Shown here piece after piece: positions 5,984 through 47,641 of a stretch of DNA of 47,641 nucleotides. The stretch covers positions 1-47,641 of the forward strand of contig JAOACC010000066.1 of NCBI GenBank assembly GCA_026418035.1, read 5' to 3'. The stretch's first letter is position 1, and the number at the start of each line of letters is the position of its first letter. This stretch comes from a bacterium. GTDB lineage: Bacteria > DUMJ01. Made by a program: the position numbers and the translations under genes. Under the pieces are notes generated by a model that worked only from the letters and a program-made list of their open reading frames with translations, did no database searches and was not told where the DNA came from.

Positions 5984-5986
5984 CTA

Positions 5987-20626: not shown

Positions 20627-21433
20627 TTATATTATTCCTATAGATCTCATATATTCTATGTATCTCGGAAAGGCTATTTCAGGTTCTAGTATCTCTGGAT
20701 GCCACATCTTTTCCCACTCAAAAGATAGATATCCCTGATAATCTATTGCTCTGAGTAAATCTATTATCTCCCTAAGTGGAATATCTCCTTCTCCCGGTAG
20801 AACTAAATGCCAGTCATCATCTATTCTCTTTGCATCCTTTATATGCATATGTCTAAGATAGTCCTTTAGATATTCTAAAGTTTCTTTTGGGCTCTCTCCA
20901 CTTCTATATGGATGCCATACGTCCCAAAGTGCCTTTATATTTTCGATATCTGCCCTCTTTATGATATCAGATACCAACTTCCCTGTCGAGAAATAGTCAT
21001 GTGTCTCTACAACAACATCTACTTTAAAATCCTTTATCTTTTCTCCAACCTTATGCAGAGCCTCAGGTATATAATTCATATACTCGGACTCGATAATCTC
21101 CTTAGGAACATCACCTATAAAGGTTCTTACTATCGGAGCATCTATTTCTTTAGCTAATTCACAGTATCTTATAAGATTTTCTATATTTGCTTCTCTCTCA
21201 TCCTTTATAGGAGAAGCAAACCTAGTGTATGCACTTATACAGCATATTTCTATCCCATTATCCTCAAAAAGTCTTTTTATTTCATTTCTTTCTATAGGAG
21301 AAATCTCAAGAGATATGTGCTGTCTCCCTGAACCTCTTAACTCTACTCCGTTATAGCCATAGCGCCTAGCAGACTCTACTATCTTCTTTATATCCCAATT
21401 AGGACAGCCTAACGTACTAAAAGAAAGCCTCAT
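20627..21433 (-). CDS. Sugar phosphate isomerase/epimerase (xylose isomerase-like TIM barrel)
   Basis: 268 aa. Family call by eye (YGYNGVELR, ETH..., W..H. motifs). Confidence 0.7.
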   Translation of the reverse strand: MRLSFSTLGCPNWDIKKIVESARRYGYNGVELRGSGRQHISLEISPIERNEIKRLFEDNGIEICCISAYTRFASPIKDEREANIENLIRYCELAKEIDAPIVRTFIGDVPKEIIESEYMNYIPEALHKVGEKIKDFKVDVVVETHDYFSTGKLVSDIIKRADIENIKALWDVWHPYRSGESPKETLEYLKDYLRHMHIKDAKRIDDDWHLVLPGEGDIPLREIIDLLRAIDYQGYLSFEWEKMWHPEILEPEIAFPRYIEYMRSIGII

Positions 21434-25630: not shown

Positions 25631-25844
25631 ATTCTCTCCTTGCTAACAACTCTATCGCCTCTTCTAAAGAACCTTTAGAAATCCAAATCTCTACTGGCCC
25701 ACCCACACCCATAATGGGACCATCACCATAAGGGACAGTAGAAGATTTTAAAAAAACATATATTCCGTTACTCTCCAAATAACTTTTTATTATTTCGGCT
25801 TTAGTCTTATTAGAAACCCTCTTCAGTACTATCAACTCTTCCAT
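25587..25844 (-). CDS. DUF2007-like small protein (putative signal-transducing fold)
   Basis: 85 aa. The pattern LKRVSNKTKAEIIKSYLESNGIYVFLK resembles DUF2007. Overlaps both neighbouring genes. Confidence 0.5.
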   Translation of the reverse strand: MEELIVLKRVSNKTKAEIIKSYLESNGIYVFLKSSTVPYGDGPIMGVGGPVEIWISKGSLEEAIELLARREFEEGGGIEDDSTEG

Positions 25845-26247
25845 CTAATATTTCTAAAATCTTCTCCATAGCTAGATTTATCAATTTATTCAGCGAGGAA
25901 GTGGTTTCTTCAACCAATAAAAATCTGGGGTGAGAAACAGGGATCAGTACTTTTATAGCCTTACTTGTAGCTACAGCCTCTGCTATTCCGGTAGTAATTT
26001 CACCCATCATACTGTTAGGTATAACTATTCCCCAAGGTCCTATAATAATATCTGCATCTAAAGAAGAAACCTTTATAGCATTTTCTCCCGTAGCACCTCT
26101 ATTAGCACCTGCCCTAAGCATACTACCAGTAGCAAATGAATTAGTCCCTACTGCTATTATCTCTATATCTGGTATGCCCTTTAATCTAGTTATAATCTCA
26201 GAACCTAATCCTCCACCTAAACCGTCTATTACAAGTATCCGCTTCAT
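25810..26247 (-). CDS. DUF3842-family protein
   Basis: 145 aa. N-terminus MKRILVIDGLGGGLGSEI is typical of DUF3842. Confidence 0.6.
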   Translation of the reverse strand: MKRILVIDGLGGGLGSEIITRLKGIPDIEIIAVGTNSFATGSMLRAGANRGATGENAIKVSSLDADIIIGPWGIVIPNSMMGEITTGIAEAVATSKAIKVLIPVSHPRFLLVEETTSSLNKLINLAMEKILEILDGRVDSTEEGF

Positions 26248-26249
26248 AT

Positions 26250-26867
26250 CTATAAGGAAATATTTGCTCCTACTTGGAATATGATTCCTTCATGGTAAGT
26301 CGCTGTAATATTTAAAAATGATAATAGATTTATATTGAGGGCTATACCAGCCTTCTCAGATTTATAAAAGCCTAACAAATCTATACTATCAGTAAGCTTG
26401 AATTCCAAAGCTCCAAATATACCCTCGTAGATTCCACTCCCTACACCTATATGACCTTTCAAATTACCCAGCGCCTTAGAAAGCGCAACATAGAAAGATG
26501 TCCCCCCTATAGCATTATTAACATCAAAAAGCCCACCTATAGATATACTAGGTAAGAGAGGCTTTTCCTCTATGACATTCCATTTTGCATGGAATATAGG
26601 TATAAAATCTGAAGATGAAGAAAGAGAAAATCCAGTAGCCCCTATCTCTATGCCAACACCAAGGCCTAACGTTATTGGAATTCTTGTCAAGGTATCACTT
26701 CCATAAAAGCCAACGTTAGGACCTATCGCGACACCAAAATTCAACACATATGCCGTTGGTATCTCTGATATACCGGTTGGTCCCCAATTAGACAAAGTAC
26801 TAGCATTTGCAAAACCATAGAAAGACATCAAAAATACAATCGTAACTAAAAATACCTTTATCCTCAT
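26250..26867 (-). CDS. Secreted Gly/Ser-rich beta-strand protein, possibly an outer-membrane beta-barrel (YjbH-like N-terminal motif)
   Basis: Start reassigned to the ATG at 26867, which has GGAGG 7 nt upstream and an ATGA overlap with the maturase stop. Signal peptide MRIKVFLVTIVFLMSFYGFANA, then alternating hydrophobic pattern. Confidence 0.55.
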   Translation of the reverse strand: MRIKVFLVTIVFLMSFYGFANASTLSNWGPTGISEIPTAYVLNFGVAIGPNVGFYGSDTLTRIPITLGLGVGIEIGATGFSLSSSSDFIPIFHAKWNVIEEKPLLPSISIGGLFDVNNAIGGTSFYVALSKALGNLKGHIGVGSGIYEGIFGALEFKLTDSIDLLGFYKSEKAGIALNINLLSFLNITATYHEGIIFQVGANISL

Positions 26868-28162
26868 ACCTTTACCTCCATTCTTTTTGCCCTTAGCCAT
26901 AGGGCATATTCTATCCTTAATTTTTGTATCTCACAGCCAATCTCATATGGCTCTGTAATATTCCTATTCATATTGAAATTATTAGCTAGACATCCTCCTC
27001 CACAGAGATACCTAGTCCAGCAATCCTTACATAAAGGTTTACTGTCTATATTATTTAAGATTTTAAATCTATCTTTTAATTCTTTATTAAGGTTTTTCTC
27101 ATAAATATTGCCCATCATAAATTGTCTATATCCAACAAACTGATGGCAGGGATATATTTCTCCAGTGGGGGTTACCGCCATATACTCTATTCCGGCACCA
27201 CAACCTCGAGTCAGTCTTGGCAAACAAGCTCCCTCTTCTAAAGGTAATTCAAAGTGAAAGAATTTTACATCGCTTTTTAAACATTCCTCAGCTATCTTTT
27301 TATATTCTTCTCTCAAGATAGGGATATGCTCTCTCTTTATTGAGAGATTCTCGTCAGTTGTCACTACAGGTTCAAGGGATATGTATCTAAAACCTAAATC
27401 GATTAAATCTTTAAATGTCTCAGAGAAGGTTATTGTCTTTGCAGTATACGTACCTCTTATATAATATCCACCATACTCTCTCCTCCTAGCTAATTCTATA
27501 GCATTAGGAAGTATGTATTTAAAAGAGTCATTACCATTAATTAAATGTCTATGAATATTATGGACCTTATCTCCTCCATCAAGGCTCAAAACTACACTTA
27601 TTTCCAGTTCATCTAGGAGGTTTAAAACCTTCTCTGTTAGTAAAATACCATTAGTGGTAAGTGTTATTCTCAGATTCTTATTATATTCAACTGCTCTCTT
27701 TTTTCCATATATACTTACATCTCTAACAGCATCTAAATTTAATAAAGGTTCTCCACCAAAGAAGTCTATCTCTATGTTTTTTGTATCTTTAGAAGCTTCA
27801 ATTAAAAAATCTATCGCCCTATATGCCGTTTCCAAATCCATCATAGATCTACTAGAGCTGAGGTTATGACTTACAAAGCAATAATCACAAACCATATTAC
27901 AAGAATGGGAAACATTTAGGCAGAGAGACTTTAAAGTTAAATCATCATAAACTTGAATATTAAAAGAGTCATATGGAGTTAATACTTCTTCTATCTCTTC
28001 ATAAACATCTTCAGGGATGCAAGGGTCTTTACTCCCCTTAAGAAGGGATTCAACAGCCTTAGCCCCCTCTTCATCTAGCTGATAGAGGGAACCAAGACTG
28101 TTAAACAAAAAATATTCACCCTCGACAGAGAAAATATGCCAATCTCTCTTTACCAAGTCCAT
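26864..28162 (-). CDS. Radical SAM/SPASM peptide maturase, SCIFF-maturase type (thioether-forming)
   Basis: 432 aa. CxxxCxxC motif (CNMVCDYC) and a C-terminal SPASM Cys cluster (CKDCWTRYLCGGGC). Lies immediately downstream of, and overlaps, a SCIFF-like peptide gene. Confidence 0.85.
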   Translation of the reverse strand: MDLVKRDWHIFSVEGEYFLFNSLGSLYQLDEEGAKAVESLLKGSKDPCIPEDVYEEIEEVLTPYDSFNIQVYDDLTLKSLCLNVSHSCNMVCDYCFVSHNLSSSRSMMDLETAYRAIDFLIEASKDTKNIEIDFFGGEPLLNLDAVRDVSIYGKKRAVEYNKNLRITLTTNGILLTEKVLNLLDELEISVVLSLDGGDKVHNIHRHLINGNDSFKYILPNAIELARRREYGGYYIRGTYTAKTITFSETFKDLIDLGFRYISLEPVVTTDENLSIKREHIPILREEYKKIAEECLKSDVKFFHFELPLEEGACLPRLTRGCGAGIEYMAVTPTGEIYPCHQFVGYRQFMMGNIYEKNLNKELKDRFKILNNIDSKPLCKDCWTRYLCGGGCLANNFNMNRNITEPYEIGCEIQKLRIEYALWLRAKRMEVKV

Positions 28163-28435: not shown

Positions 28436-28885
28436 ATGCAAGTTACCACATTTACAGGAGAGGGTGCTACTTATAGATTCTATCAGGGTTTTGATGCTAT
28501 TACTGGAGTTTATGCACACGAAGCATTAAATATCAGAGTATTCAAGAGATATGCATTAAACGCTAATAAAGAAATTGTAAACAGCGAAATAAAAATCAAG
28601 CTCGCCATAGATCCAAAGACAAAAAGGTTAATTGTCGTTGGAGGCGAATCTAGGGCAGAGTTTAAAAATAAAAATTACACAAAGATTACAGAACTATTAT
28701 CTGATGATACCGAAGAGATAAAGAAAGAAATTAGAAAATTACTAGAAGAAGAAAGGCTATTAAAAACTGTAGAAAAGTATGATAATCCCTTTATAGGCGA
28801 AAGATTAGAAGAGATAAGGAGGAAAATAAATATCCTAAAGATAGAAGCCTTAACGAAGGGTGTTATGGTAGATCTTTTTGCCTAG
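28436..28885 (+). CDS. Hypothetical protein with no recognisable family
   Basis: 149 aa. GGAGG 7 nt upstream and candidate promoter TTCACT-17-TAATAT at 28390-28418. The C-terminal half is charged and coiled-coil-like. Confidence 0.55.
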   Translation: MQVTTFTGEGATYRFYQGFDAITGVYAHEALNIRVFKRYALNANKEIVNSEIKIKLAIDPKTKRLIVVGGESRAEFKNKNYTKITELLSDDTEEIKKEIRKLLEEERLLKTVEKYDNPFIGERLEEIRRKINILKIEALTKGVMVDLFA

Positions 28886-31415
28886 CTGTTACAAGTTTAT
28901 TCCATTCTTCTTCAGAAATAGGCCTATCAAAACTTCTTAATTGACTTACCTTAAACCCGTGTTTTTTTGCTAATTCTCTAAAGTAGTTAATTCCTTCTAT
29001 TGTAAGGTCACTTCCTAGACTCATATCTGTATAATTTTTCTCTAACGCTAACATCATCGTCTCTGCCATACAGGCATAGGCTAATCCTCTCTCAAATCCA
29101 AAGTACCAACCCAAAGAGGGTTTACCAGGTATCTCTACGACTCCGCCATCGATTACTAAAACATCTGGCCTTAGCTCCTTTATTAAGGGGCTCACATTTG
29201 GCGGCCTAGATATATCGCATATAATAGCTCCAAATTTAATATAACTAGGTTCTATTAACTCTCTAGGACTATTAGTAGCGGTAACAATTATATCAGAAGA
29301 AGATACAGCTGATAAAAGATTTGTAGTAATTGTTATATAACCTTCTTTTTCAAGTAGACTTAATATTTTCTCCCAACTATCCGTATCATCGTAAGAAGGT
29401 AGAATAAGAGTTGATAGATACTCACCGATAGTTTTATTACTTGGTCTCCATCCAGATTCTAGACGTCTAGCGATATTTAGACACAGATCTATCCCAACCT
29501 TTCTCAACCTTCTAACACTAGACTTAGGATGAGAAGGATTTCCAACTAAGATTATTTTATGAATATCTTCGGATAAAAGTATCGCTAAAGCCCGCCCTAT
29601 AGACCCAGTTGCCCCTACAACACTAACAGTACTCTGACTTAGATCAATTTCTAATTTCGCCGAAGCTAGTTTTAAGGCATCTATGCTAGCAACTACAGTA
29701 TAGCTATTACCCGTAGTTAGAGGAACATACTTACCTTTAAGCAACGTCCCACCCCTAGTAATAACAGATGTATAAGCACCTAATCCAAGGATTTTTGCTC
29801 CTCTATCGACGGCAAGAGAAACGGCGGATTCAATTACCTTAATCACTTTATCCTGAGGAGTCTCTATCATCTGTCTTGCAGTATATGGAATATTAATAAA
29901 CTCACCATAAGCTGTAGCTCCATAGTCCGAATTTATTCTAACTTTCCCTATAACAAAAGGTTTTATTAAGTCTTTTCCGATCTCAGAGAAGACAGCTATC
30001 TTATCTCTAGGAAGCATTATAAGAGTTGGATCAAATTCAGAATAATTAGCGAGATCAATAGGGTGAACCAAAAAAGCAAATCGACCATCTTCTAAAGAAG
30101 GAGAAACATCTTCCCTAGGTTCTTTCTCGATAACATCTATGTTATAGAGAGAGAAATCTCCTTTACTTATATTAAGAATCGGACGTATAATTTCTGGGGT
30201 ATTCATTTCATCTAAAATATTAAAAACATCCTCAAGGGATTCAACAACTTTTTGGCATTCATCCCAGGTAGTTATAAAGGAAGGTTCTAACCTTATAACT
30301 TTATTATTCTTTAACGTGGGGGCTAATCTTATTTTCTTCTCGTTTAATAGATAACTAACAACTATTGGGACTAGATTCTCCTGCTCTGAGAGAACACTCA
30401 ATATGCTTTGAGGATAGTTTTTTCTATCCATATCTAACTCTATACCTAATAGATATCCTTTACCTCTAATATCTTTTATAAGAGTGGGGAATTTATCTTT
30501 TAGCCTTAATAACTCTCCAATTAATCTCTCCCCATTTTCTCTTATTCTCTTTATCAAACTCCTATCATCCCTAATTAAAATCTCTAAAACTTTATCAGCT
30601 ATTAAACATGCTATATTATTTCCTGCAAAAGTAGAGAAATTATTCAAGTCAAAGCCTTCCGGATAAAACTCTTCCCTAATTAGGCAGACTCCTATAGGAT
30701 ATATTCCTCCACCTAGTACTTTGCCAATAAGTAATATGTCTGGAATAAAGTCTTTTCCTTCACACAAGAAGAGAGACCCAGTTCTACCTAAGCCAGTTTG
30801 GATTTCGTCTAGGATAAACAAAATATTGTGTTTATGGCATAGCAATCTAACTTTAGACAGATAATCATCTGGGGGCAAAATTATACCACCTTCACCTTGA
30901 ATAGGCTCTACCATCAAGTCACCATAATGCTTAGCATTTTCTTCTAACTCTTCCTCCAGGGCTGTTATATCCCCATAAGGTATATATGTAAATCTTTCAT
31001 TCTGTATACCATGATAGCCACCCTTAGCGACTATCATTCTTTCCTTACCAGTCAATAGGGAAACTATCTTTGTAGCTATTTCAACTGCTTCTGTGCCAGA
31101 ATTGGCAAATACTACATACTTGAATCCTTCAGGAGCTAACTCAATTAGTCTTTCTGATACCTTCTCTTGATACTTAGATACAGAAGCTTGAACAATAGTA
31201 GGGATAGATTCCTTCTTTATCCTTTCCAAAACATCCCATATTTCAGGATAATTAAACCCAAATGGCAAAGCTCCAAAAGAGGATATAAAATCCAAATATT
31301 GGATACCACTTTCATCATAAAGATAGTTTCCTTCGCCTTTTACAAATACCTTGTCCAACCTTATAACTTCAAGCATCTTATTTAAATAAGGGTTAATATA
31401 CTTAGAGTTACTCAA
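28863..31415 (-). CDS. Fusion protein: class-III PLP aminotransferase (N-terminal) and acyl-ACP-reductase-like NAD(P)H thioester reductase (C-terminal)
   Basis: 850 aa with a TTG start. N-terminal domain has SGTEAVE, DEIQTGLGRTG and PLP-Lys GKVLGGG (K232). From about residue 445 it is collinear with cyanobacterial AAR: FAFLVHP, LGLGAYTSV, TTGNSYTV, VVGATGSIGRAL and catalytic-Cys context AYACMAETMMLALE (C782). Confidence 0.75.
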   Translation of the reverse strand: MSNSKYINPYLNKMLEVIRLDKVFVKGEGNYLYDESGIQYLDFISSFGALPFGFNYPEIWDVLERIKKESIPTIVQASVSKYQEKVSERLIELAPEGFKYVVFANSGTEAVEIATKIVSLLTGKERMIVAKGGYHGIQNERFTYIPYGDITALEEELEENAKHYGDLMVEPIQGEGGIILPPDDYLSKVRLLCHKHNILFILDEIQTGLGRTGSLFLCEGKDFIPDILLIGKVLGGGIYPIGVCLIREEFYPEGFDLNNFSTFAGNNIACLIADKVLEILIRDDRSLIKRIRENGERLIGELLRLKDKFPTLIKDIRGKGYLLGIELDMDRKNYPQSILSVLSEQENLVPIVVSYLLNEKKIRLAPTLKNNKVIRLEPSFITTWDECQKVVESLEDVFNILDEMNTPEIIRPILNISKGDFSLYNIDVIEKEPREDVSPSLEDGRFAFLVHPIDLANYSEFDPTLIMLPRDKIAVFSEIGKDLIKPFVIGKVRINSDYGATAYGEFINIPYTARQMIETPQDKVIKVIESAVSLAVDRGAKILGLGAYTSVITRGGTLLKGKYVPLTTGNSYTVVASIDALKLASAKLEIDLSQSTVSVVGATGSIGRALAILLSEDIHKIILVGNPSHPKSSVRRLRKVGIDLCLNIARRLESGWRPSNKTIGEYLSTLILPSYDDTDSWEKILSLLEKEGYITITTNLLSAVSSSDIIVTATNSPRELIEPSYIKFGAIICDISRPPNVSPLIKELRPDVLVIDGGVVEIPGKPSLGWYFGFERGLAYACMAETMMLALEKNYTDMSLGSDLTIEGINYFRELAKKHGFKVSQLRSFDRPISEEEWNKLVTARQKDLP

Positions 31416-37068: not shown

Positions 37069-37851
37069 TCATAAAGTCTTACTAAACCAATCTATTACAT
37101 TATCAATAACCATCTTTTCCCAAATAACAGAATTAAATGTATGGTCAGCATCTTCTATGATAAATAATCTAGTCTCTGCAGGTCTTTCCTTTAATGCGTT
37201 ATAGTAGTTATAAGCAGCATCTACAGGAACTATATCATCCTTAGAACCATGAATAATAAAGACTGGACCCCTAAAATTTTTAATCTTATCAACTGGACAA
37301 ATATTAGGCAATTCTTCTATAAAATTTATAGATAATTGCCAACCCGCATAATCCACAAAACCATCAGCTCTTATTCTTTCTTCCGGATACTGGGTCTTTA
37401 TCCTTTCAGCTAGAGGAGACAGATTCGCTACAGCAGAAAGAAGGACTGTAGATTTTATATCACCCCTATCTCCAGCCACATAACTAGCAATAGCACCCCC
37501 CATACTTAAGCCTAAAATTCCTATCCTAGAAGAATCTACATAACTCTGCTGTTTCAAAAAGTCAACAGCTGTAAAAGCATCCTCAACCTCCCCTGAAAAA
37601 GTCATCTCTATAAATTCCCCTTCACTATCTCCAGACCCATAGAAATCAAACCTTAAGACATTAATCCCAGAAGATGCTAATCTTCTACCTATTTTAACAA
37701 AAAGACGATGTGGTTCTATCTTGTTACCAGTAAAACCATGAAAGAGGACAACACCAGGATTTTTTACTTTACAATCGGCTATATGAAATATTCCTACTAA
37801 TCTACGCCCTTCTCTTCCAAAAACAACAGGGATTTCCATAGTTAACATCAT
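37069..37851 (-). CDS. Alpha/beta-fold hydrolase
   Basis: 260 aa. Nucleophile elbow GLSMGG, HG oxyanion motif (LFHGFTG) and a late DADH catalytic His context. Confidence 0.75.
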   Translation of the reverse strand: MMLTMEIPVVFGREGRRLVGIFHIADCKVKNPGVVLFHGFTGNKIEPHRLFVKIGRRLASSGINVLRFDFYGSGDSEGEFIEMTFSGEVEDAFTAVDFLKQQSYVDSSRIGILGLSMGGAIASYVAGDRGDIKSTVLLSAVANLSPLAERIKTQYPEERIRADGFVDYAGWQLSINFIEELPNICPVDKIKNFRGPVFIIHGSKDDIVPVDAAYNYYNALKERPAETRLFIIEDADHTFNSVIWEKMVIDNVIDWFSKTL

Positions 37852-37911
37852 CTCCCCTTCTATTAATTTACTAATAGAATATCATAATGAGATAAAAAAA
37901 TGCAAATAGTA

Positions 37912-37948
37912 AAGGCTAGCATCTTCAAACTAAGAAGATGCTAGCCTT
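37912..37948 (-). terminator. Terminator hairpin after hcp
   Basis: Perfect 15-bp stem AAGGCTAGCATCTTC / GAAGATGCTAGCCTT with a 7-nt loop. A T7 run lies 11 nt downstream on the minus strand. Confidence 0.7.
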
Positions 37949-37966
37949 AGATCAAAAAATAAACTT

Positions 37967-39289
37967 TTATCCCTTAAGTATGTTCTTTATATCTTCTTTC
38001 GGTTCAGAGATAATTCTCAGATCATATTGAGACTGTAATACTTTAAGTATCTCCTCATTGACCCATGCAGGTAATATAGGTCCAACATAGATACCTTTAA
38101 TACCCAAAGCAAGTAAACTCCAAAGTATAGCTACCGCCTTCTGCTCCATCCAAGTCAAAACAAGAGTTAAAGGCAACTCATTAACCCCAACACCAAATAG
38201 ATTAGCTAAGGCTTCGGCTAATTCTATAGCCACTATAGAATCGTTACACTGTCCTAAGTCTATCAATCTAGGAACACCATCTATATCTCCAAGTTCTAAA
38301 TCATTTATTCTAAACTTTCCACAGGCAAGTGTAAAAACAATAGTTTCATTTGGAAGTCTTTCAACAAATTCTCTATAGTATTGACTCTTTCTAATTGGAA
38401 CATCACATCCACCCACTAAGAAGAAATGTTTTATTTTTCCTGAATCCACTAGAGACTTAATCTCCTCTGCTAGAGAAAGGATTACAGATTTTGAATATCC
38501 CGTAGTTAGATACTGTCCCTCAGGTTCATCTTCTAGGTCTGGTAAAGCTTTTGCCTTCTCTATTACAGGAGTAAAATCATAACCATCTATATGCCTAACT
38601 CCTGGTAGGCCAGTTGTCCCTGTTGTAAATATCCTATCTTTATAACTCTCTTGAGGAATTAAAACACAATTTGAGGTTCCAAGAATAGCTACCGGATACT
38701 TAGCAAATAATTGCCTCTGATCATGCCATGCCTTACCTAAATTACCTACTAAATGTGAATACTTCTTTAAACCTGGATATCCATGTGCTGGTAAGAGCTC
38801 AGAATGAGTATAGACATTTATTCCAGTTCCCTCTGTTTGTTTTAGAAGCTCCTCTAAAGCCTTAAGTCCGTGACCAGTAACAATTATTCCCTTCCCTTTT
38901 GTAGTCCATGTTCTTACCTTAGTAGGGATAGGTTCTCCGTATCTTTCTATATGAGCATTCTTTAAAAGTTTCATCGTCTTTATATTCATCATACCAGCCT
39001 TGAGTGCTAAAGCAACAAATTTCTCTGGGTCAAAGTTGACATTAGTAAGTGTAGAATAAAAAGCCTCAGTCAAAAAAGCGTCAATCTCCGGATCAGTATA
39101 GCCTAACTCTTTAGCATGATACAAATAAGCAGTTATTCCCTTTATAGCAAAGAGAAGATTATCCTGCAATCTATTTACTGTGGGAACTTTGCCACAGACG
39201 CCCTTGACTGTGCAACCTGCCCCATTTACCGTCCAAGAACATTGGTAACAGAACATATCTAATTTTTCTACGCTAGACACTTTTATCAA
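37967..39289 (-). CDS. hcp: Hybrid-cluster protein (hydroxylamine/NO reductase), short class-III type
   Basis: N-terminal MFCYQC...[10 protein letters not shown] Cys motif. Start is ambiguous: TTG at 39289 is only 1 nt from the SD, GTG at 39280 has 10-nt spacing from AAGGAGG, and ATG at 39256 is also possible. Confidence 0.85.
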
Positions 39290-39324
39290 TCCTCCTTAAC
39301 TCTTTTACCTTTAATTTGATTATA

Positions 39325-41079
39325 TCACTTATGAAACATCTCTCTTATCTCTTGCCATGACTTACCACTTCTAGCTGCCTCTGCTATCAATGGCGCATTT
39401 ATTGCTTTTCCACCATATATGCCAAATTTAAAACTTTCGCAAAACTCTTGATTTACCGCTCCCCCACCACAAGCAAACGGGATATTTATTCCTTCTTCCT
39501 CTAGCCTCTTTGCTATTCTAGGAAAAGCAGACATAGTAGTAGTCATAAGGGCGCTTCCCGTAAGTAGACAAGGCTTATACTTCTTAACCGCCTCTACAAC
39601 TCTTTCTATAGGAACATCTACCCCAAGGTCTATAACTTCATAACCATGGGCTACCAATAATGCTTTAACTATATCTTTTCCTATTGTATGAATATCCCCT
39701 TCTGCAACATGCATAACAATCTTTCCTTTTTTCTCTATAGGTTTTCCCATATATTCTTCACACATCTTTATTCCTATCTGCATAGCATCCGCTGAAAGAA
39801 TAACCTGGGGAAGAAAATACTCTCCTTTATTCCAAAGTTCACTAACAACATTAATACCCTCTACCAATCCCTTATTTATAATCTCTATAGGATCATAAGT
39901 CTCTAAAGCCTTTTTTATTGCGTCTATGACCTTTTGAGTGTTTCCATTTATTACCGCTTCTCTCACTTCCTCTAAAACATCTTTAACAAGTCTTTCCTTA
40001 ACCTTCTCCTCTCCCTTGGATAAATCATATCTAACAAAGATCTGAAAATTACTTTTTCTTTTGTTAGGAATAGTATAAGATGGCTTGGACAAAGAAATCA
40101 TCTGTAATGCCTTAATATTTTCTATAGATGTCTCCAGAGCAAGACTACAACCTGGAGCTAAGAGATCTATACCACTTTCTAAAGCCTTATTTCCTGCCTT
40201 TACTATCTCATTGGCTGTACCTTGCAGTAATAGCCTTACCGGATCAAGATTACCAATTAGAGAGACCTTATCCTTTACTTGGGTTGCAGTAGAAAGGTCT
40301 AATTTGTGGTCTATACTTAGTGCATCCGCTCCACTGTCCGCCATATATTGAATTATAGGAGTTACGTTACCACATATATGTAAAACAGTAACAGCAGATT
40401 TTAATTCTTCGAAAAGCCTCTTATGATATGGTAGAATTAAATCTTTATATATCTTAGGGCTTATCATCTCTGTGCTTGCACTCATATCTTCTACGCATAT
40501 AATATCCGCTCCAGCATTAATTAGCGCCTTGCCATAGATTATTCCTAACTCTAGTGTTATATCAAGAAATCTCTTTAAAGATTGTGTTTCAGAAATAGAG
40601 GCAACTAAAATTTCATTTAATCCCAAAAGATATCCAGCCAAACTAAAAGGTCCTACAATGCCGGCTATAACAGGATATTCTTTCCCAATTTCTCTTGATA
40701 GCTTTTCTACTGCGGATATCACTATAGGAATTCTTCCTTTAGACAGAATATCACTTGGTAATGTAGGTAGAGAGTCTATCTTAAATGGATGGGTTTCCAC
40801 AGTGGGAAGACTATCATATGAGAATCTTATCTTACATCCAAGTGCTTCTGCTTCCACAGTCTGACAAAAGGGGACTCTTACATTATCAAAACCAAGCATT
40901 TCTATAGCAGAAAAAGCAAGTTTGGCCATTTTTTCTGGGCTGGTATGTGCATCTAAAAGACTAATATTAAGCTCTTTCAACTGTTCTTTTGTAATAGTCT
41001 GATTTACACATACTATAGGAACCCTGTCTAGTCTCTTAGAACCTAAAATTGCTGATAAAACCCTCTTCTTGGGAGTCAT
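39325..41079 (-). CDS. Fusion of an MtaA/URO-D-family methyltransferase domain and a corrinoid-binding (MtaC-like) domain, CmuA-like architecture
   Basis: 584 aa. N-terminal half has zinc motifs VLHICGN (HxC) and LAPGCSL. C-terminal half has a B12-binding cap plus a Rossmann domain with DIHTIG (DxHxxG), SALMTTT and CGGGAV. Confidence 0.8.
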   Translation of the reverse strand: MTPKKRVLSAILGSKRLDRVPIVCVNQTITKEQLKELNISLLDAHTSPEKMAKLAFSAIEMLGFDNVRVPFCQTVEAEALGCKIRFSYDSLPTVETHPFKIDSLPTLPSDILSKGRIPIVISAVEKLSREIGKEYPVIAGIVGPFSLAGYLLGLNEILVASISETQSLKRFLDITLELGIIYGKALINAGADIICVEDMSASTEMISPKIYKDLILPYHKRLFEELKSAVTVLHICGNVTPIIQYMADSGADALSIDHKLDLSTATQVKDKVSLIGNLDPVRLLLQGTANEIVKAGNKALESGIDLLAPGCSLALETSIENIKALQMISLSKPSYTIPNKRKSNFQIFVRYDLSKGEEKVKERLVKDVLEEVREAVINGNTQKVIDAIKKALETYDPIEIINKGLVEGINVVSELWNKGEYFLPQVILSADAMQIGIKMCEEYMGKPIEKKGKIVMHVAEGDIHTIGKDIVKALLVAHGYEVIDLGVDVPIERVVEAVKKYKPCLLTGSALMTTTMSAFPRIAKRLEEEGINIPFACGGGAVNQEFCESFKFGIYGGKAINAPLIAEAARSGKSWQEIREMFHK

Positions 41080-42470
41080 TATCTTCCCTCCAAACCATAA
41101 GAGTCTAGACGAAAATTAGAAATTAAGTTCTTATATTTTTTTATACAATCTATAAGAAAATTTTCTTCTGATTCAGGCAAATTGTCTATAACCTTTCCAC
41201 ATTCAGAGAAAACTTCCTTCTCCTTTTGAGATATCAACAAGATATTCTCTTTTATAGATTTTTCTAACTCCTCATAAGCCCTTCTAAGAGCAAAAAGAGC
41301 TCTCTCATAATAATTATTACCCTTTACAAGGCTTGAACCTATATTATAGGCAATCCGAGGAGAAATTACATAAGCTTGAGGGTCTCGAAGTTCATCTGAC
41401 TCAATAAATATATCTCTTAAGATTTTCTCATATCCTAGCTTTAAAGCTGAATTCATTTGCGATACATCATACCCCAAAATCTCAGTAAAAACTGCAGGGG
41501 TAGTTCCTCCAAACATTTCTCCATATTGAACAGCCTCATTACTCCATAAATCACATACAGCAGCAGAGATATTTCCCATAAGGTCTGAGTGTGCACAAGC
41601 ACAACTCTTTCCTTCCATAGAGATAGGGCATCCTGTAATTGCTTTTATAATAGGACCTTCATAGCCACAGTCTTTATCAGGACCTTTTGCTCCAACATCA
41701 AATGCCACTAAAGACCTAGCAGAACCTATTGCCCTTATTAGGGCAGAAAATATGTGAGATAATTCATTACTGGTAAACCCTCCAGCTAAAAACATGGCAG
41801 AATTCGAATGGGCGCAATCTGTATCCCCCCCAGGTATGATATTATATTCCTTAGCTATCATTACTATATCCTTCCAAAGATATTCCATATCAAGAGAACC
41901 TAAAATACCTATAGCAAATAGGCATCCAATTAAATCTTGTCTTGTTACTGCATAGTTAAAAACTTCTTTCCCCCCTGTAGATTCGATAGAGAGAATATCT
42001 GCCCCTGATTCTGCAGATAACCTAAAACTTTCTATCATCTTATCATATTCTCTTGAACCTCTGTAACCATTCTCTGGCTTTCTGATATCTGCTACAGTGA
42101 CTCGAAGAGCGCTTTTAAGACCAAATTTATCATAGTACTCTTTTAACAACCACTTAGTCATATGAGTTATCTCTTTTCCCCAAGTTGGATTATCGGTAAG
42201 CTGAAATACATGCTCAAGCTCCAATACAATCGAAGGAAGTCCTATCTGAATACATCGATCTAAAATATCCTTTGTCATCCTTTCATATTCATGATAGATC
42301 GTATCGAAACTTCTCTCTGTTCCCGGACGAGGATGATATTTAATTTCAGGATGCACCATTCCTCCCCCTATTTCTAAATCAAACCCACATTTTACTGGAT
42401 ATATAGCTTTACCAAAAGTCATCTCCTCCCAAGAGGAGTAAGCCATACTTTTATACATTTTCTTATCCAC
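41079..42470 (-). CDS. mtaB: Methanol:corrinoid methyltransferase MtaB homologue
   Basis: 463 aa, collinear by eye with Methanosarcina MtaB (SMAY...EMTFG, YPVK.G.DLEIG). Contexts of the zinc ligands are conserved: SIESTGGKEVF, DTDCAHSN, GPDKDCGYEG. GTG start. Confidence 0.8.
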   Translation of the reverse strand: MDKKMYKSMAYSSWEEMTFGKAIYPVKCGFDLEIGGGMVHPEIKYHPRPGTERSFDTIYHEYERMTKDILDRCIQIGLPSIVLELEHVFQLTDNPTWGKEITHMTKWLLKEYYDKFGLKSALRVTVADIRKPENGYRGSREYDKMIESFRLSAESGADILSIESTGGKEVFNYAVTRQDLIGCLFAIGILGSLDMEYLWKDIVMIAKEYNIIPGGDTDCAHSNSAMFLAGGFTSNELSHIFSALIRAIGSARSLVAFDVGAKGPDKDCGYEGPIIKAITGCPISMEGKSCACAHSDLMGNISAAVCDLWSNEAVQYGEMFGGTTPAVFTEILGYDVSQMNSALKLGYEKILRDIFIESDELRDPQAYVISPRIAYNIGSSLVKGNNYYERALFALRRAYEELEKSIKENILLISQKEKEVFSECGKVIDNLPESEENFLIDCIKKYKNLISNFRLDSYGLEGR

Positions 42471-42924
42471 CTGCCCTCTTAGATATTTTATTTATCCCTT
42501 CTAATAAAACCTCCCAAGCAAGTAATACACATTTAATCCGAACAGGAAGTCTTCTTATACCTTCAAAAGCTAAAAGGTCACCCAAATCTTCGGTAAAATC
42601 TTCCTTTCCTTCCATTATTCTTTTAAATCTAATAATTAAACTCCTTATATCCTCAATAGATTTACCCTTAACTAACTCTGTCATAATTGATGCAGAGGCT
42701 TGGCTTATAGCACAACCTACCCCGGTAAATTTTATGTCTTCAAGCTTATCATCCTCTACCAGAAACTGGATGTAAATAGCATCACCACAGATAGGATTTT
42801 CACCATCAACTTTACATAAAGGATTTATTCCCTCAGAAGAATGAGCGTAAGGAATCTCTCCATAATTTCTTGGATTTTGATAGTGTTCCAAAATAACTTC
42901 TTTATATATTTCCTCAAGTTCCAT
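42463..42924 (-). CDS. sufU: SUF-type Fe-S scaffold/sulfur acceptor SufU (NifU N-terminal-like)
   Basis: 153 aa with conserved Cys contexts NPICGD, GVGCAIS and IKCVLL. Confidence 0.85.
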   Translation of the reverse strand: MELEEIYKEVILEHYQNPRNYGEIPYAHSSEGINPLCKVDGENPICGDAIYIQFLVEDDKLEDIKFTGVGCAISQASASIMTELVKGKSIEDIRSLIIRFKRIMEGKEDFTEDLGDLLAFEGIRRLPVRIKCVLLAWEVLLEGINKISKRAGG

Positions 42925-44146
42925 AACTAAAAATCTTCTCCACTTTTTCTAAACTTTTTATTAGACAATCTATCTCCTCTTTAGTGTTATAAACATATAG
43001 AGAAACTCTACAAGAAGCTGAGATTCCTAGTGCATCATGTAAAGGTTGAGCACAATGGTGCCCTGCTCTTATAGCTATACCATTTTGATCTAGAATAGTT
43101 GCTACATCATGAGGATGAACTTTTTTGTAATTAAATGAGATGATGCTACTTCTTAAATTTATATCCTTAGGACCATATATTGTAATTCCATCTAAACTAG
43201 ATAGCATTTCCAAAGCATATGCAGTTAATATCTTTTCATGTTTAAATACTTCATCCATCCCTAAATTATTTAAATAATCTATAGCCTCACCAAAACCTAT
43301 AACCCCAGCTATGTTAGGAGTTCCTCCTTCAAATCTATATGGGATATCTGCCCATATGGAATCAAATATCGAAACTCTTTTTATCATCTCTCCTCCACCT
43401 AATAGAGGCTCCATTTCTTCTAATATTTCCCTCTTACTATATAAAATCCCTATACCGGTAGGCCCAAGCATCTTATGTGCAGAAAAAGCTAAAAAATCTA
43501 CATCCAAGTTCTTCACATTAGTTGGGATGGAAGGAATCCCTTGTGCTCCATCAATTAAAACCTTAGCTCTAATATTATGGGCTATTTTTACTATTTCACC
43601 TATAGGGTTTATAGTACCAAGAACATTACTTACATAGGTTATACTGATAAGTTTTGTATCTTCTGAGATAGAAGAATAAAAAGAATCCATGTCTAATGTG
43701 CCATCATCCCTTAAGGGAATAAATTTCAACTTAATTCCTCTTTCTCTTGCCAATATCTGCCAAGGGACTATATTACTGTGATGTTCCATAATCGTAAGTA
43801 TTACTTCATCACCATCTCTAAGAAATTTTCTTCCCCATCCATATGCTACTAAATTTATAGCCTCAGTAGTTCCTTTGGTAAATACTATACAGGAAGACTC
43901 TTCTGCTCCAATAAAATCAGCCACTTTTTTTCTTATTCTTTCATACTCTTGTGTGGCTATAGCCCCTAATGTATAAACTCCTCTATGCACATTAGCATTG
44001 TAATGTTTATAGTAATCAGATGTAGCATTTATAACAGAGAGAGGTTTCTGAGTAGTCGCTGCATTATCAAGATATACTAGTTTTTTCCCATTTATTTTCT
44101 CTTTAAGTATTGGGAAATCATTTCTAATTTTATATACATCATACAT
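42914..44146 (-). CDS. sufS: Cysteine desulfurase SufS
   Basis: 410 aa, class-V aminotransferase. PLP-Lys context FSAHKMLGPTG and catalytic Cys RAGHHCAQP. Confidence 0.9.
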   Translation of the reverse strand: MYDVYKIRNDFPILKEKINGKKLVYLDNAATTQKPLSVINATSDYYKHYNANVHRGVYTLGAIATQEYERIRKKVADFIGAEESSCIVFTKGTTEAINLVAYGWGRKFLRDGDEVILTIMEHHSNIVPWQILARERGIKLKFIPLRDDGTLDMDSFYSSISEDTKLISITYVSNVLGTINPIGEIVKIAHNIRAKVLIDGAQGIPSIPTNVKNLDVDFLAFSAHKMLGPTGIGILYSKREILEEMEPLLGGGEMIKRVSIFDSIWADIPYRFEGGTPNIAGVIGFGEAIDYLNNLGMDEVFKHEKILTAYALEMLSSLDGITIYGPKDINLRSSIISFNYKKVHPHDVATILDQNGIAIRAGHHCAQPLHDALGISASCRVSLYVYNTKEEIDCLIKSLEKVEKIFSYGT

Positions 44147-44152
44147 ATTTAA

Positions 44153-44935
44153 TTACTCTCCCTGAAAAATATTCATTAACTTCTCTGTAATGAAATCCCT
44201 TAAAAAAGGAGCTTCAATAAGGGATTCATCTAACAAATCTTGTAAAAAGGCTACTGATAATATTTTAATAGCTGTCCTTTCTTCTATTCCTCTACTCTCA
44301 ATATAGAAAAGATCTTCATCATTAATTCCTCTTACTACTGAACCATGTGAACATTTCTCTATATTATCATTTTCTATCTCGAGGATAGGAACACTTTCCA
44401 CAGTTGGACCATCCCCTATAACAAGGGTTCTATTTACTTGGGAGGCAGATACTTTTTCTGCTATTTTCCCAATGTTTATAGCTCCTTTAAAAGATAGTTT
44501 AGCTTCGTTTTTCAATATCCCTTTAACAACTAGATTACTTTTACTAAAAGGGGCCAGATGTCTTAGAAATACATTTAAGTTAAAATTCTCCTCCCCTAGT
44601 AGTACATATACAGTCTTAATATCAACATCAGTCTTTTTTTCAAGGAGCTCAACCTTTATATTCACTGAAAAGCTTTGTCCTAAGTTTAAAAGAAAGACTT
44701 TACAGAAGCTATTCTCTCCCAGATAAATAGAAACATCAAAATCTCCTTCAATTTCTGAATCTATTATCCAAATTAATTTTAAAGAAGCATTTTTATCTAC
44801 GTATATGTCTAAGGGCATAAATCTTTTCTCTAGATTTGATTCATAAAAATATGTTACCTCATGACCTTCATCTATAACTAAAATATGACTATTAGTGTTA
44901 AATCTAAGAAAAACCTCATTCCTTGGTAAAATCAT
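44153..44935 (-). CDS. sufD: SufD (short form)
   Basis: 260 aa. C-terminal UPF0051 motif [23 protein letters not shown]. Confidence 0.75.
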
Positions 44936-46308
44936 CCTATATCTCCCCTTAACTGCAATCTTATAAGTCTGTTAAGCTCTACTGCATATTCAAAAGGTAA
45001 TTCCTTAGAGATTGGTTCTATAAAGCCTCTAACAATAAGAGCACTTGCCTCATCTTTGGGTAGTCCCCTACTTTCCAAATAAAACAGTTGTTCATCGTCT
45101 ATCTTACTTACAGAAGCCTCATGAGATAAAGAGGTATTACTATTTTCTATTTTTATTATTGGATAGGTGTCTGATCTAGATTGATTATCGAGTAAAAGAG
45201 TATCACATCTCAAACTAACATTAGATTTAGTAGCGCAGGGGTCTACATATACTAATCCCCTGTAACTATTTCTTCCTCCATCCTTGCTTATAGATTTACT
45301 AGTGATTCGGCTAAAGGTATATGGAGCTAAATGTAAAACCTTTGCCCCAACATCTTGAAACTGCCCTTTGCCTGCATATGCTATACTAAGTAATTCTGCC
45401 TTAGAACCTTTACCACGCATATAAACAGAGGGATACTTCATAGTAACTTTACTTCCTAGATTACCATCTATCCATTCAACGATAGCTTCATCATAAGCAA
45501 CTGCTCTTTTGGTAACAAGATTATAGACATTATAGGACCAATTTTGAATAGTTGTATACCTTACCCTAGCTCCTTTCTTTACAACAACCTCTACGACAGC
45601 GCTATGAAGAGAATATGTAGAATATATGGGAGCAGTACAACCCTCTATATAATGTACATAGCTTCCAGGTTCTGCTATAATAAGAGTCCTCTCAAACTGT
45701 CCCATGTTCTGCGAATTTATCCTAAAATATGCCTGGAGAGGAATCTCTACAGAAACACCTTCTGGTATATAAATAAAGCTTCCTCCGCTCCAAACTGCGC
45801 TGTTGAGAGCAGAAAACTTATTATCAGAAGGAGAAACTACAGTGCCGATATATTCTCTAACAAGTTCCGGATACTCTTTCACAGCGGTATCTGTATCTAC
45901 AAATATTACTCCCTTCTTTTTCCAACTTTCCTTCAGCTTATGATAAACCATCTCTGATTCATACTGAGCAGATAAACCCGCTAACAATCTTCTTTCAGCT
46001 TCCGGGATGCCTAATCTTTCAAAAGTATTCCTTATATACTCTGGGACATCCTCCCAAGAAGAACTCTTTCTATCTGACGGTTTTACATAATAAACTATAT
46101 CATCAAAGTTTAGATCAGATAGGTCTGGTCCCCAGCTAGGAAGATTCTTTTTAAGAAAAATTTCATACGCATTTAGACGAAATTTACGCATCCATTCTGG
46201 TTCCATTTTTAACCAGGATATCTCCTCAACTATTTCTTTAGAGAGTCCCTTAGTTAATCTAAACACATAATTTTCTGGATCTTTGAATCCATACTTATAT
46301 CTCGTCAT
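44932..46308 (-). CDS. sufB: SufB
   Basis: 458 aa with canonical SufB sequence ([34 protein letters not shown]). Confidence 0.93.
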
Positions 46309-47059
46309 GCTCTCTCCTCTTCTCTAATGTCTCATATCCTTCTCTTTCTATTAAATCTATGAGCTCATATCCACCAGAGGCAAGTATCTTACCATCAAAC
46401 ATTACAAATATATTGTCAGGTTTTACGTAGTCTAAAAATCTTTGATAGTGGGTGATTATAAGAATGGTCTTATCTTCGTTAAAAAAGTTATTAATTGTAT
46501 TAGAAACTATCTTCATAGCATCTATATCTAATCCTGAATCTATCTCATCTAGTATTACTAACTCAGGATTAACAATTACCATTTGTAAGACTTCACTTTT
46601 TTTCTTTTCACCACCGCTAAGACCTTCATTCAAATAACGGCTAATAAATTTTTCGTTAAGATCAAGGACTTCTAATTTAGATTTAAGGAATTTACTAAAT
46701 TCCATAGGAGATTTCCTATCATCAACTCTTGTATTAAAAATTAATCTCAAAAAGTTAAAAAGAGTAATTCCAGAAATCTCTATTGGATATTGAAAAGCCA
46801 AAAATATCCCTCTTTGCGCTCTTTCTGAAGGTGTAAGATTAGTTATATTCTCCCCATTAAAGATTATTTCTCCCCTAGAGACTTTAAACCTTGGATGTCC
46901 CATAATAGTATATGCTAAGGAACTCTTTCCTGCACCATTGGGTCCCATAAGTGCATAAATCCTTCCTCTCTTCAATTGAAGATTTACCCCTTTCAAAATT
47001 TCTTTTTGCTCTACCTCTGTATGTAAATTCTTTAACTCAAGAATTACTCCTCTACCCAT
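46295..47059 (-). CDS. sufC: SufC ATPase
   Basis: 254 aa. Walker [10 protein letters not shown], signature LSGGEKKK, Walker [11 protein letters not shown]. Confidence 0.93.
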
Positions 47060-47102
47060 TTATAACCTCTGTATTTCGATATAATTAATTAATTTACTAA
47101 AG

Positions 47103-47131
47103 ATTATATACCATGTTAAAATTAAAAGCAA
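47103..47131 (-). promoter_or_regulatory. Candidate promoter of the suf-mta-hcp unit
   Basis: Minus strand reads TTGCTT (47131-47126), 17-nt spacer, TATAAT (47108-47103). The leader contains the palindrome AATTAATTAATT. Confidence 0.45.
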
Positions 47132-47248: not shown

Positions 47249-47641
47249 ATGTTAGAAAACTGGAAAAGAATACTGGTTTTTTCTGCCCATCCTGATGATG
47301 AGATACTTGGTGCTGGGGGGACCATAGCAAAGCTTTCTAAACTTGGGAAAGATGTGTTTGTGGTCACTTTTGCGATAGGGGAAACAAGCTACAGTTCTAT
47401 TGAGATGAAGGAAAAGATGAGGGAGTTAAGGTTAAAGGAAGCTGAAGAATGTAATAAGGTTTTAGGAATAAAAGAGAGAATAATATTATATAAACCCAAT
47501 CAAGGTATAACAAACGATAGAGAAACATACCAAGAATGCGTAAAGATTATAAGGAAATATAAGCCCGACGTCATTTTTACTCATTATAAGGAGGACAAGC
47601 ATAGCGACCATAGGATGGTTTGGGAGATTACAGATGAAGCC
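47249..47641 (+). CDS. PIG-L/LmbE-family N-acetylglucosaminyl deacetylase, truncated by the window end
   Basis: MLENWKRILVFSAHPDDEILGAGG... carries the AHPDDE motif and a later HSDH motif. GGAG lies 11 nt upstream. The frame is open to the last base. Absent from the ORF track because it has no stop. Confidence 0.8.
   Translation, partial: MLENWKRILVFSAHPDDEILGAGGTIAKLSKLGKDVFVVTFAIGETSYSSIEMKEKMRELRLKEAEECNKVLGIKERIILYKPNQGITNDRETYQECVKIIRKYKPDVIFTHYKEDKHSDHRMVWEITDEA

Follow-up and report, generated by a model that had tools for sequence, protein, structure and literature searches.

Why should a complete methanol:corrinoid methyltransferase system be encoded in what is probably one operon with genes for the assembly of iron-sulfur (Fe-S) clusters? 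When such methyltransferases turn up, in metagenome-assembled genomes (MAGs) among other places, they are read as a sign of methylotrophic methanogenesis or, in acetogens and sulfate reducers, of methanol catabolism. Methanol itself is widespread in sediments and hot springs, pectin being one of its sources. The window analysed here, a 47.6-kb stretch of DNA (contig JAOACC010000066.1), comes from a non-methanogen. In its region 37912-47131 the genes sufC-sufB-sufD-sufS-sufU, mtaB, a gene in which MtaA-like and MtaC-like domains are fused (MtaA~MtaC) and a short hcp follow each other on the minus strand; these are eight open reading frames (ORFs), or nine with the fused domains each taken separately, and not the ten genes of the initial annotation, a miscount. 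The methyltransferase system has its catalytic ligands intact, a predicted thiol-type acceptor domain and no activase nearby. Our analysis, which is based on this single window and its comparison with related loci, suggests that the module may be linked to sulfur mobilisation and the control of Fe-S/cysteine status rather than to energy-yielding methanol catabolism, a reading to which we would give a probability of about 45%.

As predicted from sequence, mtaB and the fusion gene encode between them all three MtaABC activities, with the second methyltransferase (MT2) fused to the corrinoid carrier. The product of mtaB (41079-42458), the methanol:corrinoid methyltransferase (MT1), has 459 amino acids (aa) and matches PF12176 (E = 1.8e-192) with its residues 4-459, the profile having 460 positions; it also aligns end to end (residues 3-459, E = 8e-143) with chain A of 2I2X, from Methanosarcina barkeri. 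The zinc ligands of 2I2X (Glu164, Cys220 and Cys269, M. barkeri numbering) are conserved as E164, C220 and C269, the motifs SIES, DTDC and KDCGYE aligning at the ligand positions. The protein is 55% identical to MtaB of Desulfofundulus kuznetsovii and reaches 626.4 bits with the methanogen equivalog model NF040651, below its cutoff of 720, which makes it a family member that is not at equivalog level. The fusion (39325-41079, 584 aa), assigned by Pfam and NCBIfam matches, is composed of a URO-D domain (residues 2-325) resembling the MT2 MtaA, a linker of ~40 aa, and B12-binding_2 (368-440) and B12-binding (452-545) domains. Its N-terminal domain matches 4AY7 (M. mazei MtaA) with E = 8e-68 and retains the HICG...APGC motif, and its C-terminal domain matches chain B of 2I2X (MtaC) with E = 3e-64, EGDIHTIGK aligning to EGDVHDIGK with the histidine kept. 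Seven homologues, with 47-73% identity to the protein of the window, all keep H234-x-C236, C311 and D462-x-H464-xxG. The scores exceed the cutoffs of TIGR01463 (mtaA_cmuA, 304.7 vs 235.4) and NF004889 (339.9 vs 244) and, for the corrinoid part, in which the lower-ligand histidine of DxHxxG is present, that of TIGR02370 (220.1 vs 215.3); with the methanogen MtaA equivalog NF040654 the MtaA domain scores 311.8 bits, below the cutoff of 400.

Within the UroD superfamily a His-Cys-Cys site is found in S/Se-methyltransferases, the cysteines being replaced in O-demethylases (Kountz and Balskus, PMC10418091), and MtaA of Methanosarcina methylates diverse short thiols in vitro (PMC13618148). The MT2 zinc site of the fusion is predicted to be of this thiol-methylating type. 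Leucine 75 of the MtaA pocket is an invariant Gln in the fusion family and the equivalent of MtaA Q29 is variable. Since L75 is replaced and the scores lie below the cutoffs of the methanogen equivalogs, the acceptor need not be coenzyme M. We attempted to predict the acceptor from the pocket residues and discarded the result, as the change of L75 to Gln suggests an altered pocket and gives no substrate.

The genes in front of the module leave little room for a different identification. SufC (46295-47059, 254 aa, the Fe-S assembly ATPase; TIGR01978, 316 bits vs 212.8), SufB (44932-46308, 458 aa; TIGR01980, 713 vs 346), SufS (42914-44146, 410 aa, a class II cysteine desulfurase; TIGR01979, 603 vs 475) and SufU (42463-42924, 153 aa, a zinc-dependent sulfur-transfer protein; TIGR01994, 145 vs 92.5) each exceed the NCBIfam equivalog or subfamily cutoff. 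SufD (44153-44935) is a short form of 260 aa that consists of the SUFBD core domain alone (PF01458, E = 3.4e-41) and remains below the cutoff of TIGR01981 (161 vs 222). At the other end, Hcp, the hybrid-cluster protein (37967-39280, 437 aa; TIGR01703, 629 bits vs 361), matches positions 122-522 of its model and has in addition the N-terminal cysteine motif CX2CX8CX5C; it is ~85 residues shorter than the long forms and would be a class III-like short form.

How tightly is the module bound to the suf genes? From sufC through the fusion no overlap is longer than 14 nucleotides (nt) and no gap longer than 6 nt, and the Shine-Dalgarno sequence of each downstream start is located within the 3' end of the preceding gene. 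Most of the junctions in the initial annotation stand, namely the 14-nt overlap of sufC and sufB, the 4-nt overlap of sufB and sufD (ATGA), the 6-nt gap between sufD and sufS, the 11-nt overlap of sufS and sufU and the TAATG shared by mtaB and the fusion, and two had to be revised once the gene starts were corrected. The reported 8-nt overlap of sufU and mtaB came from a GTG at 42470 in the ORF list. We have placed the start at the ATG at 42458, which leaves a 4-nt gap and the packing still tight, because the N-terminus MYKSMAY (ATG-TAT-AAA/AGG-AGT/AGC-ATG-GC) is found in 5/5 lineages and a Shine-Dalgarno of the GGTGGA or GGAGG type lies 7-9 nt 5' of the ATG in the five of them. Similarly, hcp starts at the GTG at 39280, which aligns with the ATG of hcp in loci L176 and L011, and the spacer behind the fusion measures 44 nt instead of 35; the AAGGAGG described there sits 10 nt before this GTG.

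A probable sigma-70 promoter precedes sufC (47103-47131, minus strand), with a -35 box TTGCTT (47131-47126), a 17-nt spacer and a -10 box TATAAT (47108-47103), and an upstream block CCTCTTG(c/t)..TTT-N-TATAATCTTTAGTAA is kept in L011 and L003. Behind hcp lies the intrinsic terminator already seen in the initial annotation (37912-37948, minus strand), a 15-bp perfect stem with a 7-nt loop and a T-rich tail; with RNAfold the 113 nt downstream fold with -32 kcal/mol, and equivalents follow hcp in L176, L011, L003 and L004. No other convincing terminator was found in the region, as the same annotation had noted. The one further terminator-like match on the minus strand, a hairpin in conserved codons 8-16 of mtaB (42438-42423), has a weak 6-bp stem and a poor T tail, is not retained in L011 or L003 and was judged to be due to chance. 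The terminator scan gave 4 terminator-like sites vs 5.4 expected; the promoter scan, with 37 promoter-like sites vs 40 expected, is uninformative alone and its sites were used only where they are conserved across lineages. The extended -10 box (TGnTATAAT) TGATATAAT at 39319-39327 (minus strand), read from the sequence, overlaps the stop codon of the fusion. An exact TATAAT is preserved in the fusion-hcp spacer of the window, L176, L011, L003, L004 and L012, six lineages in which these spacers are otherwise divergent and of differing lengths. Since this box is conserved in all six, hcp likely has a promoter of its own, and TGATATAAT is probably a secondary promoter for it. With a conserved promoter, no convincing internal terminator and a conserved terminator, but a conserved -10 box before hcp, sufCBDSU-mtaB-fusion is probably one tightly packed transcription unit. 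Read-through from sufC into hcp, ending at the post-hcp terminator, would be expected alongside the promoter of hcp itself, which on these predictions is attached to the operon more loosely than the initial annotation assumed.

A few further features of the non-coding sequence and of base composition should be mentioned. The 13-mer TTAGTAAATTAAT, just 3' of the sufC -10 box (47088-47100, minus strand), has two exact copies in the 47.6 kb, the second at 37862-37874 (minus strand), and both are 2-3 nt past a -10-like box, in one case that of the sufC promoter and in the other that of the promoter of an alpha/beta-hydrolase gene beyond the hcp terminator. Variants are found in L011, L003 and L176, and in relatives they occupy both places; the element could be a shared operator or start-site element; when two mismatches are allowed, its count in the window is at chance level. 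Riboswitch control was considered and dropped, as Rfam at gathering thresholds found three tRNAs only in the window and no cobalamin, S-adenosylmethionine (SAM) or other riboswitch. Both GC and GC at third codon positions are uniform (the latter 0.20-0.27 in the cluster of eight and in the genes beside it), giving no compositional signal for a recent horizontal insertion of the mta genes, which we had also considered.

The junction is not specific to one strain, an outcome that according to the initial annotation would have undermined it. The order sufC-B-D-S-U-mtaB-fusion-hcp is found in four other lineages, which over 9.2 kb are ~82% (L176-179), 81% (L011, JACIXS01, MAG-58), 74% (L003) and 72% (L004/L093) identical to the window at the nucleotide level, the MtaB identities being 89, 89, 85 and 82%, respectively. 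In L012, whose contig begins within mtaB, mtaB-fusion-hcp is kept. In L004 and L012 NuoF-like, hypE, hypD and mannitol-dehydrogenase family genes are located just 3' of hcp; because these genes are 35 kb away in the window, the flanks must have been rearranged while the cluster stayed intact. A metagenome scan yielded only the L004 species once more, as a second copy, and no further suf-linked lineage. The RpoD of the window is 80-97% identical to its closest matches and then drops to 65% vs Armatimonadota, Atribacteria, Synergistota and Firmicutes; the host is an uncultured, deep-branching bacterial lineage.

The gene neighbourhoods of the wider fused family are the second line of evidence. 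The fusion is rare, with ~9 co-linear full-length relatives at 36% identity or above among 1.84 billion cluster representatives (50%-identity clusters), and its gene almost always adjoins mtaB, be it in bacteria, among them Ignavibacteriota and Bacillota, or in Hadarchaeum and other archaea, across genome and metagenome collections. In the sulfur-linked neighbourhoods, which include the suf clade and are devoid of RACo, of the MetH-activation domain (Met_synt_B12) and of an extra corrinoid protein, relatives from other phyla adjoin genes for cysteine, homocysteine, thiamine sulfur and tRNA thiolation. L001 carries nifS-nadA-nifU divergent from mtaB, and L017 has cysE-mnmA-nadA directly 5' on the same strand (cysE above its equivalog cutoff). 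At L091 the module is preceded by cysK (also above cutoff), HcyBio, a NIL-ferredoxin (NIL-Fer4), Rrf2 and ThiF and is followed by PP-loop, ThiF, ThiS, Thi4, DUF6775 and ATP_bind_3 genes, and in the Hadarchaeum loci L020 and L023 ThiI-DUF6775-Thi4-PP-loop is divergent from mtaB. L173-175 have an Rrf2 regulator alone, divergent from mtaB. The best scores of these Rrf2 proteins are with CymR or IscR, ahead of NsrR, and all lie below the cutoffs. Neighbour-joining trees, built for MtaB and for the fusion, place the sulfur-linked loci in at least three clades, each with its own set of sulfur genes. As controls we used 76 unfused mtaB loci (at least 8 kb each, 1.25 Mb) retrieved by the same scans; none of the 76 contains a gene of the sulfur panel, relaxed thresholds giving ferredoxin-domain matches only, while a separate corrinoid protein is present in 74 and RACo in 52.

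The activase-linked neighbourhoods (L005/19, L007, L009, L015, L014, L022, L024/25 and L094) have no sulfur genes; there the fused module is accompanied by an extra corrinoid protein plus RACo or a free Met_synt_B12. At L007:13316-14726, L009:6589-7942 and L015:11787-13197 it is the free-standing Met_synt_B12 and an extra corrinoid protein, not RamA or RACo, that come after the fusion, with an NfnAB-like pair next; this would be an unusual route to reactivate a methanol methyltransferase. Several other peculiarities were seen around fused modules. In a short contig of a Halanaerobiales MAG (L026:1847-3861) the MtaA-like and corrinoid parts are two adjacent ORFs (384 and 282 aa), either a split form or a frameshift. 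Two stand-alone URO-D/MtaA-family genes lie near the module of L001 (13182-14153 and 18314-19411), one directly 3' of the fusion, with no suf linkage. A SAM hydroxide adenosyltransferase gene (L017:4491-5279, plus strand), whose reaction (SAM to methionine and adenosine) is related to methionine, is found a few genes 5' of cysE-mnmA-nadA-mtaB. In Hadarchaeum a MEDS-PAS sensor, with the methanogen/methylotroph DcmR sensory domain, and a PAS-GAF-DUF835 protein are encoded a few kb from the module (L020:1604-4845, minus strand) and could be regulators. The mtaB-fusion pair is flanked by PP-loop ATPase, Thi4, DUF6775/DUF7001 (a probable metallopeptidase) and ThiI/ATP_bind_3 genes both in L091 (14230-20872, MAG-56) and in L020 (5363-8511) and L023, and Thi4 is 68% identical between the bacterial L091 and Candidatus Hadarchaeum, which suggests that a larger island may have been transferred across domains of life. 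In the searched literature we found no paper on Hadarchaeota together with MtaB, and the Methanoglobus paper is silent on the fusion.

How could such a module work? We propose that the MtaB zinc site would activate methanol and methylate the Co(I) corrinoid bound in the C-terminal part of the fusion, that this part would then swing on the ~40-residue linker towards the MtaA-like domain, and that the His-Cys-Cys zinc of the latter would pass the methyl group to a zinc-activated sulfur nucleophile. The output would be a methyl-sulfur compound feeding methionine, either by direct methylation of homocysteine or through methanethiol made from sulfide. We infer methanol as the donor, a thiol as the class of acceptor, the link to sulfur metabolism and the co-transcription with suf from sequence. 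Methyl transfer from methanol to a thiol is exergonic (~-27 kJ/mol for coenzyme M and, by our own estimate from formation energies, ~-40 kJ/mol for H2S), and for this reason we take the forward direction, from methanol to thiol, as the default. We favour a universal acceptor over coenzyme M because the module occurs in many non-methanogens, because genes for cysteine, homocysteine and persulfide trafficking adjoin it, and because some relatives carry the MetH activation domain. Of the three options that the initial annotation had left side by side (a non-canonical role of the Mta proteins, co-regulation under stress together with hcp, and simple compaction) the first is the best supported, by the His-Cys-Cys MT2 and by the sulfur-gene neighbours in at least three clades. 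A more specific version, which we consider doubtful, is a methanol-driven route to the methyl-sulfur bond of methionine that is independent of folate and SAM and operates in several uncultured anaerobic lineages of bacteria and archaea. It would act on homocysteine directly or supply methanethiol for O-acetylhomoserine sulfhydrylase, and would be controlled together with sulfur mobilisation through Suf or NifS, CysK/CysE, HcyBio and Rrf2/CymR-like regulators.

A number of observations weigh against the link to sulfur mobilisation and must be set beside those that favour it. The panel of sulfur genes was picked after inspecting these very loci. The independent events are few (~4-6), and one island acquired by horizontal transfer may be common to L091 and Hadarchaeum. 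The five suf-linked lineages form one clade, within which, at family level, the linkage to suf could have been conserved by plain inheritance. The activase-linked fused modules share the pocket residues, for example the invariant Q73, and the whole fused family may have one acceptor, possibly a catabolic one. Both MtaB and the MtaA domain are below the NCBIfam methanogen equivalog cutoffs (626 vs 720 and 312 vs 400). Among the 43 larger ORFs of the window, searched with Pfam, no corrinoid activase is visible that would keep the cobalt as Co(I). Finally, a URO-D-type MtaA beside mtaB in bacteria of the Desulfotomaculia type has reportedly been proposed, without biochemistry, to methylate tetrahydrofolate.

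The explanation that competes most seriously with ours, although we find it rather unlikely, is hitch-hiking or compaction: an ordinary methanol-utilisation module would have been inserted behind sufU in the ancestor of the clade, and co-transcription with suf would provide steady expression only. An unlinked MT2 would then hand the methyl group on to tetrahydrofolate or some other carrier, or MtaB and the URO-D domain would both load the corrinoid, as in CmuA, where the same domain order acts as a substrate-side methyltransferase. That the suf-linked lineages are one clade fits such hitch-hiking, as do the gene density of the window, with its many overlapping same-strand genes, the many fused modules that are accompanied by RACo, Met_synt_B12 or extra corrinoid proteins as in catabolic systems, and the active-site and pocket residues held in common with the activase-linked loci. 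It does not explain well that sulfur-trafficking and cysteine genes, different ones each time, adjoin the module in at least three clades and in 0/76 of the control loci, that the zinc site is of the His-Cys-Cys thiol type, or that the cluster outlived the rearrangement of its flanks in L004. As the initial annotation had stated, there is also no RamA or RACo, pterin methyltransferase or Wood-Ljungdahl gene among the 43 larger ORFs (a few of 101-289 aa were left unscanned), nor are there cobamide genes among them; they are of the housekeeping and sugar-metabolism kind.

The presence of hcp allows an improbable alternative in which nitrosative or oxidative stress would induce suf, the Mta genes and hcp jointly, with Suf rebuilding Fe-S clusters, Hcp removing nitric oxide (NO) or hydroxylamine, and the corrinoid module either needing protection or replacing a stress-sensitive methyl transfer such as that of methionine synthesis. 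Circumstantial support for this part of the initial annotation does exist: in six lineages hcp comes after the module, and in L091 it is 7 kb away, beside a flavodiiron-like protein and a rubredoxin, Rrf2 regulators, from the family of NsrR and IscR, are near the module in L004, L091 and L173, and an NnrS/ScdA_N/DUF1858 gene is divergent from it in L014. Against this scheme, hcp probably has a promoter of its own, the Rrf2 proteins resemble NsrR less than they do CymR or IscR, with every score below its cutoff, and most fused modules are without an NO-related neighbour. The L014 gene itself (5720-7534, minus strand, beside a ferredoxin) encodes a 604-aa protein whose ScdA_N, NnrS and DUF1858 domains would be of types associated with NO stress and the repair of iron centres. 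Still less probable, to our judgement, is a module running in reverse, in which the MtaA-like domain would demethylate methanethiol, dimethyl sulfide or a methylthio metabolite, MtaB would discharge the methyl group to water as methanol, and the sulfide or thiol released would serve Suf, CysK, HcyBio or Thi4. Enzymes of the Mts type run both ways, and the neighbours in several lineages do consume sulfide or persulfide; no MtaB is known to run backwards, and as the forward reaction is exergonic, methanol would have to stay at ~micromolar concentration or lower. There is a precedent in UroD-type proteins that demethylate Se/S compounds to supply the element, the mlp clusters having been proposed to obtain selenium from dimethylselenide (PMC10418091).

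If the link with sulfur mobilisation is functional, it would mean an anabolic or sulfur-related use of methanol, and matches to mtaB in genomes would have to be read differently; a compact, two-protein, methanol-driven S-methylation would also be of interest for biocatalysis. Were the methionine version true, enzymes that to date have been described solely from methanogenesis and methanol catabolism would acquire an anabolic role. Even mere hitch-hiking would leave a clean example of the rare fused MtaA~MtaC architecture.

Some other genes of the window complete the description. Divergent from sufC and cut by the window end is a gene for a PIG-L/LmbE-family deacetylase (47252-47641, plus strand), nearest to BshB1 (TIGR04001, 93 bits over 130 aa); the same neighbour is found in L176 (95% identity) and L011 (91%). 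A BshB1-like gene hints at a low-molecular-weight thiol in the lineage, a possible methyl acceptor, although whether the deacetylase belongs to the system is uncertain. The alpha/beta-hydrolase gene (dienelactone hydrolase/S9 type, 37069-37851, minus strand) separates hcp from tldD in the window and L177; L011 and L003 lack it at this place, and tldD there comes directly after hcp. Farther away, all on the minus strand, are an 850-aa ORF (28863-31415, also in L003), an unusual fusion that joins a class III aminotransferase to a C-terminal NAD(P)-binding domain with a weak likeness to shikimate or methylene-tetrahydrofolate dehydrogenases, and a tight trio (25810-28162) of a radical SAM/SPASM protein (432 aa), a 216-aa protein without Pfam match and a DUF3842 protein, which could be a peptide-maturation cluster. 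A 594-aa ORF without Pfam match (21430-23214, minus strand) overlaps the start of a xylose-isomerase-like TIM-barrel gene (20627-21433). We compared this AP_endonuc_2 plus 594-aa pair (20627-23214) with a pair in L005, where a 579-aa protein is encoded beside the Mta module, as a possible shared partner and rejected it: the two large proteins show no relationship (E = 0.25) and the TIM-barrels are only 21% identical.

How does this locus compare with systems already described? With MtaABC of Methanosarcina (2I2X, 4AY7) it shares the three catalytic functions and all of the ligands, at identities of about half for MtaB and the MtaC domain and ~38% for the MtaA domain; it differs in the fusion of MtaA N-terminal to MtaC, the bacterial host, the position in a suf operon, the lack of RamA nearby and of evidence for coenzyme M or Mcr in the window, the sub-equivalog scores and the change of L75 to Gln. 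A fused methyltransferase-corrinoid architecture is known from CmuA (chloromethane, Methylobacterium) and from MtsD/F/H (methyl sulfides, Methanosarcina acetivorans). These proteins have the same order of an N-terminal URO-D/MtaA-like and a C-terminal corrinoid domain and work without MtaB, while the fusion here adjoins mtaB; distant two-domain relatives of the fusion are 26-34% identical. The operons of acetogens and sulfate reducers (Moorella, Sporomusa, Eubacterium, Desulfofundulus) likewise place MtaB and a corrinoid carrier in a bacterium, but in the order mtaB-mtaC-mtaA and with RamA, and they feed tetrahydrofolate and the Wood-Ljungdahl pathway; neither their separate corrinoid protein, nor RamA/RACo, nor a methyltransferase on the tetrahydrofolate side is found among the 43 larger ORFs of the window. 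The sufCBDSU operons of the Gram-positive/Thermotoga type have the same five genes, with SufU as the sulfur acceptor of SufS; here SufD has 260 aa and the operon runs on into genes that are not for Fe-S assembly.

The searched literature contains no paper that links an MtaB-type methyltransferase to suf, which agrees with the initial annotation in that the arrangement is unusual, and no description of an obligate pairing of MtaB with such a fusion, of its placement in a suf operon, or of a recurrent linkage of the fused module to sulfur trafficking that excludes activases. All of the protein families are already known; the arrangement and its associations appear to be undescribed, in that we could not find them reported. 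For the proposed function, precedents come from proteins of other kinds. MesA-D (Price et al., PMC7857596) and core-MetE (PMC7005905) methylate homocysteine from a methyl-corrinoid protein at a zinc site that activates the thiol; they have the MetE fold, not the URO-D/MtaA fold, the paper on folate-independent methionine synthases mentions no Mta proteins, methanol or methanol-derived methyl supply, and the parallel in function is a hypothesis. The type 1 mlp clusters (PMC10418091) combine MtaA-like UroD proteins of the His-Cys-Cys type, non-methanogenic hosts, a methyl-S/Se context and no tetrahydrofolate methyltransferase, but in them MtaB is absent, the Mlp proteins are separate and two or three in number, the corrinoid protein is free and a Ram activase is encoded. 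With one URO-D domain, fused, and with MtaB present and no Ram, the window does not belong among them, and they are nevertheless its closest conceptual precedent.

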